Source of the DNA: a virus
Lineage: Duplodnaviria > Caudoviricetes
Virus record (IMG/VR): IMGVR_UViG_2824987192_000002
Location: 2,950-66,949 of that record
Reading direction: 5' to 3' (one strand)
Length of the DNA stretch: 64,000 bases
A program made the position numbers and the translations under genes. Below are positions 34,020-34,660 of this stretch, piece by piece (position 1 is the first letter of the stretch; every line of letters begins with the position of its first letter). The notes beneath the pieces were generated by a model that made no database searches, had not been told where the DNA came from, and was given only the letters and a program-made list of their open reading frames with translations.

Positions 34020-34660
34020 TGAATGATCCACGCCTACCAAATCTCGCCCAGGTGGCGAGCGCTGATTTTATTGATCTTTCAGCCAATTTAACGGGATTTC
34101 CCCGTGATTTACGCCCAGGTTGGCGAGCGCCTACCGGATGGGTGTGGGTGTGGTCGGGAAGGCAATCCTGCATATTCGCCTACGGGACGGATGCCCTCTT
34201 TGGTGCGATTTCTGCCTAGTTCAAGCTACACGCTTGTTTCGGCTATCTGCCGCTTCGGCTACTTGCGATCCATTCGCCTTCCCGATCTGGACGCCGAGGA
34301 GGCCGAAGCCTCACACGCAAACGCGCTCCCGAACGATATGCTGGATCTTCAACGGGGCGCAGGCCCTCAGATCCGTAACTTTCCTGCGCTGCATGTCCGC
34401 CTACCGGATGGGCGAGAGAGTTCTCCCGAACGATTCATGCCCTAGTCGGACCCTTGCGGGCGAGGACCTCACGAGGCCTTTGCATCCACCATTAACCGAC
34501 TGTCGGAAACGACATGGACTTCCACCATGCTCGGAGTATTGCCGGCCGGGCTAGGCTCCGTTTCCGATCTCTGTGCCTTGCGGCGAATTGGCTTTGGAAG
34601 GCTGGAACCCGTTTATTAGACGGGGGCGGACTTTTCGCTTTATACCAGCGCTTCCAAATT
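34020..34660 (-). ncRNA. Candidate large structured late-leader RNA
   Basis: Several nested 7-12 bp stems, GNRA/UUCG tetraloops, a pseudoknot and internal direct repeats; no credible CDS. Confidence 0.55.

Follow-up and report, generated by a model that had tools for sequence, protein, structure and literature searches.

A mosaic array of structured RNA modules, with diverged units of a putative new RNA family, upstream of the packaging genes in a tailed-phage genome

The 64,000-nucleotide (nt) stretch of DNA analyzed here, referred to in the following as the window, spans positions 2,950–66,949 of the Caudoviricetes record IMGVR_UViG_2824987192_000002. Within it, a gap of 652 nt (34010–34661) is bounded by two open reading frames (ORFs) on the minus strand, one encoding a protein of 210 amino acids (aa), referred to as c1 (34662–35294), and one of 62 aa (33821–34009). 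Downstream of the gap are a DUF5681 gene, which resembles that of a small terminase, and the large terminase gene. The original prediction, made from the letters alone, had read this region as a large phage non-coding RNA or an array of processed small RNAs. We found that the gap is non-coding, structured RNA whose sense is the minus strand, and that its modules, among them a divergent copy of a 98-nt motif that we named R1, are inherited separately. Of the two alternatives proposed, the array fits better, and the gap is not one giant fold.

No conserved protein is encoded in the gap: the long plus-strand ORFs that cross it are not conserved as proteins, and a protein-coding reading was rejected. 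The single tblastn match falls on conserved R1 bases; the R1 copies also vary by insertions and deletions of 1–2 nt and by changes in loop length, contrary to coding. The gap is present once in its own 6.36-Mb genome, which excludes a repeat element of the REP, MITE or RIME type.

The gap was compared by BLAST with 300 genomes of the same family. R1, a 98-nt motif with four helices (P1–P4), was defined by eight genome matches that continue on the 5′ side past the segment that the window has in common with them. A covariance model built from these eight seed copies, which had been found by BLAST with the 3′ half, gave 41 matches in all, 32 of them distinct. Copies were found in 30 IMG/VR contigs out of 104 candidates fetched by a pattern, the word used for the search being part of the junction between P1 and P2. 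Standard pairs fill 96.1% of the pair cells in the R1 alignment, which is fitted to the model, compared to 23.6–47.5% when the partners are slid. Covariation in homologs, put forward earlier as one check of the RNA, was present: nine of the 20 pairs have changes on both sides, and none of 500 shuffles reached the covariation score.

The R1 motif consists of GUAG, a hairpin, the junction AGAUAGCC, a central domain and UAGGGCA. About 55 of the 98 positions are invariant in the eight seeds, many of them in junctions and loops, and all eight retain the P1–P2 junction CGAAGAUAGCC; the invariance of this junction is unbiased only in the seeds, because the IMG/VR copies were ascertained with the junction word. 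The loop of P4 alternates between GAAA, GAGA, GCAA and UUCG, and one pair is G·U in 19 of the 32 distinct rows, a pairing that works on minus-strand RNA only. The tetraloop swaps and the G·U pair therefore place the RNA on the minus strand.

On the 5′ side of R1, canonical arrays have an AAUUC box, then a small hairpin, then P0, a variable hairpin whose closing pairs covary. R1 is followed by a nearly invariant 49-nt hairpin, referred to as DE, and/or by a stem formed by UCAGAACGG and CCGUUCUGA with variable content, referred to as BF. The AAUUC box with a short hairpin was found upstream of R1 or of tRNAs in loci L020, L022, L023, L025, L026, L047, L073 and L122, and the BF word lies 3′ of R1 in 14 of 33 distinct loci. 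The window keeps the canonical order of elements, in rearranged form.

The 4227 models of Rfam 15, which include tRNA, GOLLD, ROOL, ribozymes, riboswitches and alphaproteobacterial small RNAs, were run with the gathering threshold as the criterion. In the window, two tRNAs at 62.4 kb reached the threshold and nothing else; inside 34010–34661, no model, that for tRNA included, matched at E values up to 10, in agreement with the earlier remark that the family was not recognized. Only tRNAs reached threshold in the loci of 15 relatives, and when R1, the DE hairpin and the array of the Brucella phage Tb were searched, no family was found on R1 or DE at E up to 10. A match to rsmX in Tb was below threshold (27.5 vs. 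56 bits), fell mainly on the terminator, lacked the GGA loops and was rejected. Likenesses seen by eye to RNase P CR-I, SRP RNA, group I intron P7/J8-7 and ykkC words were dropped, since no Rfam model scores. ARAGORN found no tRNA gene in the gap, and the tRNA-like fold suggested for it was recovered neither by that program nor by the Rfam tRNA model. P1 bears some resemblance to a D-arm when read by eye. Literature searches on the sequence words of R1, on prophage structured RNAs and, more broadly, on brucellaphage non-coding RNAs yielded no mention of R1, and the gap goes unmentioned in the accessible parts of PMC4729917 and PMC4422536. By these searches, R1 is a new, previously undescribed structured RNA family without an Rfam entry, and it is well supported.

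R1 lies on the strand of the flanking phage genes in all 37 loci, and its position, between genes, on the sense strand and next to packaging genes, is the same in the window and its relatives. The gene upstream of R1 is a c1 homologue in 13 of the 37 loci, a member of a second family in eight and of a third in three; others, including one for an AlpA-type helix-turn-helix (HTH) protein, are found elsewhere. Small and large terminase genes follow R1 wherever they were recognized in the compared flank. In six loci, R1 starts no more than about 25 nt after the upstream stop codon (at 2–25 nt in L040, L043, L067, L068 and L102, while in L096 the ORF runs into R1). This leaves no room for a promoter belonging to R1, and co-transcription is therefore likely. 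In the remaining loci, R1 lies up to 486 nt after the upstream stop.

Full R1 units were found in the temperate Brucella phage BiPBO1 (72.6 bits) and in the lytic Brucella phage Tb (68 bits). In Tb (L141, JN939331), the unannotated gap between ORF11 and the portal gene (locus positions 2451–2890, record positions 5886–6325) is a complete array, which starts 5 nt after ORF11 and runs in the order R1, DE (49 nt), a T-arm-like relic hairpin (GCGGGUUCAAAUCCCGC), the BF stem and an annotated intrinsic terminator. The BLAST matches listed for this gap of the Tb-group brucellaphages comprise 43 records, 41 of them at 90–95% identity over its 5′ part. Save for a distant large terminase, no protein family is common to the Tb array and the other R1 contexts. 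Since full R1 occurs in BiPBO1 and Tb beside unrelated genes, the array is autonomous and independent of the neighboring proteins. The R1 model matched two of 150 sampled genomes of the family, BLAST of the corresponding segment matched six of 300, and among 150 genomes drawn from the rest of the class none had R1. The carriers are prophages of plant-associated Rhizobiaceae, together with the long-used phages for Brucella typing and diagnosis (the Tb group) and BiPBO1.

Matches to the gap, found in 12 of the 300 same-family genomes, were short and separate. Window positions 34432–34502 matched six genomes at 81–91% identity, 34161–34278 matched one (G179, 75%), 34281–34341 matched the same-genus genome G048 (93%), and 34340–34392 was found again in an IMG/VR contig and in a Zobellviridae phage of marine origin; the set of genomes matched differs between the modules MA, MB, MC and MD. 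This separate occurrence of the modules in other phages favors an array of small RNAs over one large RNA. G048, which lacks MA and MD, joins the segments 34565–34601 and 34281–34341 directly at a single copy of the linker AUCGUUCGGGAG, leading from the hairpin hp1 to the hairpins that follow. The stretch 34338–34564 is thus a linker-bounded insertion in the window. In G048 (L134), which is also without the 210-aa gene, an AT-rich stretch before the array, at about 5480–5560, contains TTGACG, 17 nt and TAATGG, a possible promoter for the leader.

The same slot holds a tRNA gene in L021, L004 and L034 and, by reading, in L023 and L026. ARAGORN called tRNA genes in 11 of the 37 R1 loci, of which about eight, estimated by eye, are near R1 and on its strand. 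Three of 11 c1 relatives (L019, L025 and L027) lack the gap altogether, the counterpart of the 62-aa ORF beginning right at the stop codon of c1 (tblastn E 4e-9 to 7e-9). A 25-nt direct repeat with 84% identity, at 33887–33911 in the 62-aa ORF and at 34731–34755 in the 3′ end of the 210-aa gene, flanks the entire gap. It may be a remnant of a recombination event by which the slot was opened, or it may be due to chance.

The array of the window is composed of two diverged R1 units, one H-type pseudoknot, several small capping hairpins and repeated single-stranded linkers, all described here on the minus strand. Directly after the stop codon of c1 lies a closed hairpin domain, M1 (34593–34658). 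This domain was part of the original prediction, and it is the minimum-free-energy fold, at −25.4 kcal/mol, with a z-score of −4.73 (−6.28 on the plus strand) and none of 200 shuffles as good. Only its 3′ flank is common to G048 (window 34565–34601, 89% identity). A CCAAUUC box and hp1, a GCC-GCAA-GGC hairpin, were read from the sequence at 34575–34591. P0 folds at 34532–34560, directly 5′ of R1, with a CGGAG/CUCCG closure that is replaced in relatives by CGAGG/CCUCG, CGAGC/GCUCG and CGAU/AUCG, compensatory variants when compared by eye.

The R1 copy of the window, MA (34434–34531), matched positions 1–98 of the model at 56.2 bits (E 2e-10 to 2e-13). It is divergent, in that P1 and the P1–P2 junction are replaced; GUCGUUUCCGAC stands in place of CGAAGAUAGCC, and the replacing stretch pairs upstream. 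An earlier proposed domain at 34503–34567 folds as claimed, with a long closing stem and a CAUGG/CCAUG hairpin (z −2.25, five of 200 shuffles as good), but its borders are not evolutionary, as it spans P0 and helix P1 of the 98-nt motif at 34434–34531. The CAUGG-UGGAAGU-CCAUG hairpin within it, which had been likened to a T-loop, is the plain helix P1 of this divergent copy. The GCAA and UUCG tetraloop hairpins are present, but the supposed GUGA hairpin sits in a conserved R1 loop and is not a conserved helix.

Both exact repeats reported between the domains are present. The linker AUCGUUCGGGAG (RNA sense) is an exact 12-nt direct repeat at 34423–34434 and 34326–34337, with a third, degenerate copy at 34016–34027, beside the ribosome-binding site of the 62-aa ORF. 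The word CCCAUCCGGUAGGCG is an exact 15-nt repeat at 34398–34412 and at 34128–34142, just 3′ of the closing stem of MB. It also occurs at the corresponding place in G048 and, by eye, resembles the core of the DE hairpin and the element after the BF stem in Tb, L034 and L128.

The H-type pseudoknot predicted at 34343–34389 is present and is conserved in four other sequences. It makes up module MD (34340–34392), which is 88–91% identical to L021 and to phage PQ867844. Across the five members in total, stem 1 shows one change from C-G to U-A and stem 2 one change from U-A to G·U. In PQ867844 (L137), a marine Zobellviridae phage from an oyster sample, the 53-nt module at 2501–2553 is 88.7% identical and overlaps the start of the annotated 55-aa hypothetical ORF22, which may be a miscall. 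G28 and C38 of MD change jointly to A and U in three related copies, a single evolutionary event; this would fit a third, competing hairpin around the 3′ strand of stem 1 and is not yet evidence for it.

The small hairpin hp2 (GAGGC-UUCG-GCCUC) folds at 34299–34312; in relatives, its stem, with an AAYG loop, precedes R1. The 135-nt domain MB (34151–34285) has a closing stem of 10–12 base pairs and is closed as predicted, with a perfect 10-nt inverted repeat (34154–34163 with 34276–34285), a z-score of −2.86 and none of 200 shuffles as good. The 3′ CCA attributed to it is in the sequence, but it is not kept in the single homologue. With filters off, the R1 model matched the core of MB at 34209–34265 (12.6 bits, E 0.0047), where P1, AGAUAGCCG and the GGCA at the end align and the central domain of R1 gives way to a short hairpin. 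MB thus holds a minimal second R1-like unit. Compared with its sole homologue, in G179 (75% over 118 nt), it shows three compensatory pairs in the alifold structure and two more, by eye, in the closing stem.

The 3′ tail of the gap (34010–34127) includes a GCGCUCGCCA..CCUGGGCG hairpin in two copies, another small hairpin and the region where ribosomes would bind for the 62-aa ORF. On the plus strand of this tail (34043–34059), a hairpin with a T run resembles a terminator; it opposes the phage genes, and no plus-strand gene lies before it. The 7-mer CGCCTAC occurs four times in 34031–34404, all on one strand, and 13 times in the whole window, where 5.6 were expected.

The upstream protein c1 matches phrog_37864, of unknown function, and no Pfam family. 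In its AlphaFold model (mean confidence score, pLDDT, 67.5), residues 66–138 resemble sigma region 4 (Z 7.0–7.6, root-mean-square deviation (rmsd) 2.1–2.8, 61–71 residues aligned). A weaker match over the whole length was to the Q antiterminator 6jnx_P (Z 6.7, rmsd 5.4, 111 residues; VIA-align). Foldseek against the PDB gave nothing at an E of 0.001 or better, with 6p18_Q at rank 13 (E 4.2), and PDB sequence searches were empty; the match to sigma region 4 is the clearer one. Homologues are gp82 of BiPBO1 and proteins of two Synechococcus phages, all annotated as hypothetical, and a relative of c1 scores just under the threshold for DUF6362. The modeled resemblance to sigma region 4 and Q is compatible with a transcription regulator and proves nothing. 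The label of late regulator that this gene had been given has the sigma-region-4-like fold, with its middling score, as its only basis; in Tb, the array adjoins unrelated genes.

Taken together, the sequence comparisons fit better with an autonomous mosaic array of non-coding RNA cassettes, made of separately inherited modules in an insertion-tolerant slot, than with a protein-specific leader or a single giant RNA. We give a little under an even chance to the suggestion that this array is co-transcribed and then cut into small, stable, trans-acting RNAs. It would be transcribed on the minus, gene-bearing strand together with its neighbors, between the regulatory and the packaging genes of the prophage, and the closed stems would allow each module to fold independently. 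Host RNases would then cleave the A/U-rich linkers, as in phage tRNA arrays; relatives carry tRNA genes in the slot. The stable RNAs of about 50–135 nt freed in this way may act in trans on a conserved host factor in late infection.

A number of observations weigh against this model of processed, trans-acting RNAs. No sigma-70-like promoter was found in the gap by a consensus scan, a consensus outside which alphaproteobacterial and phage-specific promoters fall, and no minus-strand terminator was found in 32800–35400. The gap as a whole folds with a z-score of −1.73 on the minus strand vs. −4.0 on the plus strand (20 shuffles each). M1, 34503–34567 and 34151–34285 fold better than shuffles, as the original prediction required, but MA (z −0.59) and MD (z 0.03) do not. 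MA is also the lowest-scoring of the 41 R1 matches, is without CGAAGAUAGCC, and could be a decaying R1 copy. The linkers look similar to the sequence around the ribosome-binding site of the ORF that follows, and may therefore be recombination scars, not processing sites. MD is supported by five closely related sequences and MB by two. The case for structured RNA is carried by covariation, not by folding energy.

The array might instead be a cis-acting leader of the late or packaging operon, in which one or more modules, R1 first, act on RNA polymerase or on the nascent mRNA, either by processive antitermination of the put/EAR type or as a nut-like loading site for the sigma-4-like or Q-like protein together with Nus factors. 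The effect would be read-through of terminators inside the 25-kb late operon, on whose minus strand we found strong terminator-like hairpins at 22619–22644 and 8365–8386. Such a leader agrees with the position of the array on the gene strand, upstream of terS/terL where recognized, in 37 loci, and in Tb just before a terminator and the portal gene. The upstream genes include the sigma-region-4-like protein with its weak Q-like fold and the AlpA-type HTH protein, and in related systems of alphaproteobacteria, antiterminators go together with long leaders that are not translated: BrrG in BaGTA, with a leader of about 860 nt (10.1101/2024.11.20.624540), and GafZ (GafYZ) in CcGTA, with a long untranslated region (PMC11150451). 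However, R1 is absent from close relatives that carry c1 (none of 11 matched, L018–L028) and from G048, and at least four unrelated gene families precede R1, none of them nearby in Tb. The window gap also lacks a terminator for a switch to control, and in L007 and L104 a terminator-like hairpin precedes the array and does not follow it. Nor is a terminator-based attenuator or riboswitch leader supported: no terminator-like site was found on the minus strand in 32800–35400, and the sequence 3′ of R1 varies among loci. We regard a cis-acting leader, the main rival reading, as possible, though on balance unlikely.

With less probability, a modular RNA machine, perhaps a ribozyme or a scaffold made of RNA, would have as its core R1 and the elements in fixed order around it (P0, the BF stem and the AUCCGG..GUAGGC word), and would be common to phages of the Rhizobiaceae group, temperate and lytic, Brucella typing phages among them. 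If this rather doubtful proposal were true, the machine would cooperate with the packaging motor or with the host machinery for transcription or RNA processing to turn on late, packaging-stage functions, and would represent a class of phage RNA not known before, on a par with phi29 pRNA, put RNA or GOLLD/ROOL. That these elements, with the AAUUC-hairpin, are the core of one large ornate RNA with variable inserts at its periphery, in the manner of GOLLD and ROOL, is improbable. The order of elements is common to Tb, BiPBO1-like loci and the window, the BF word recurs after R1 as noted, and variable inserts occur at fixed places (the tip of P0, the R1–BF interval and inside BF). G048, however, keeps hp1, BF and the terminal word without P0 and R1, several loci carry R1 alone of the elements, and whole-gap folding is unremarkable. 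No long-range covariation was found, and no search aimed at covariation between modules was made. We consider it very improbable that R1, as a self-cleaving ribozyme or a ligand-sensing aptamer, serves to cut or gate a polycistronic transcript between regulatory and packaging genes. Its many invariant positions would agree with this, and its intercistronic position on the sense strand is typical of such elements, but part of the invariance is ascertainment, the 30 IMG/VR copies having been found by the junction pattern; no Rfam ribozyme or riboswitch matched even at E 10, there is no conserved expression platform on the 3′ side, and the downstream neighbors differ. Least probable, in our view, is that the window array is largely an evolutionary leftover of scars and decaying copies that piled up at a permissive site and have no present function, or a set of DNA-level packaging or protein-binding repeats. 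The weak R1 copy without its conserved junction, the minimal core in MB, the linkers that look like duplicated ribosome-binding-site sequence and the position of the gap just upstream of the packaging genes would agree with this. Against it, the helices of the module copies in the window are intact, with compensatory changes in P0 and the closing stem of MB, MD remains 88–91% identical to copies in distant phages, and the tetraloop swaps and G·U pairs are signals at the level of RNA, not DNA.

Unexplained gaps before packaging genes are common in phages, and the gap in the window can be read as exchangeable RNA cassettes. The R1 covariance model can be used for annotating similar gaps in other genomes, and the presence of R1 in BiPBO1 and Tb provides culturable systems for a direct test of a new phage RNA function.

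Several known systems share features with the array. Like GOLLD and ROOL, which are multi-domain non-coding RNAs of phages and prophages, often beside tRNA genes, it has many domains; unlike them, it matches no Rfam model, its modules in the window are separately inherited, and R1 was seen in one bacterial family. The put RNA and the EAR element bring about processive antitermination by RNA only. The put RNA of HK022 and the EAR element of Bacillus resemble the array in being structured RNAs that head a long operon and need no phage protein of their own, and action of this type would fit because the array is independent of its neighboring genes; in contrast, R1 is absent from close relatives, and the gap has no Rfam match. 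The late leader of lambda consists of PR′, qut, 6S RNA and tR′. With such Q-type leaders (BrrG in BaGTA, GafYZ in CcGTA and lambda), the array of this alphaproteobacterial phage-like element shares the long stretch without translation that separates a regulator-like gene from the packaging or structural operon; the modeled c1 has the sigma-region-4-like HTH and perhaps a weak Q-like fold. It may differ in that the consensus scan of the window gap revealed neither a promoter nor a −10-like pause element or leader terminator, and it does differ in that modules occur without c1 (Tb) and c1 without an R1 match (L018–L028). RNase P cuts small RNAs from phage leader transcripts, such as the CI RNA of P4 and the c4 RNA of P1 and P7. 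No module of the window was called as a tRNA, but the array shares with phage tRNA arrays and RNase P-cut leader RNAs a series of tandem, independently folding units on one strand with short linkers, and relatives have real tRNA genes in the same slot, with a T-arm-like relic in the array of Tb.

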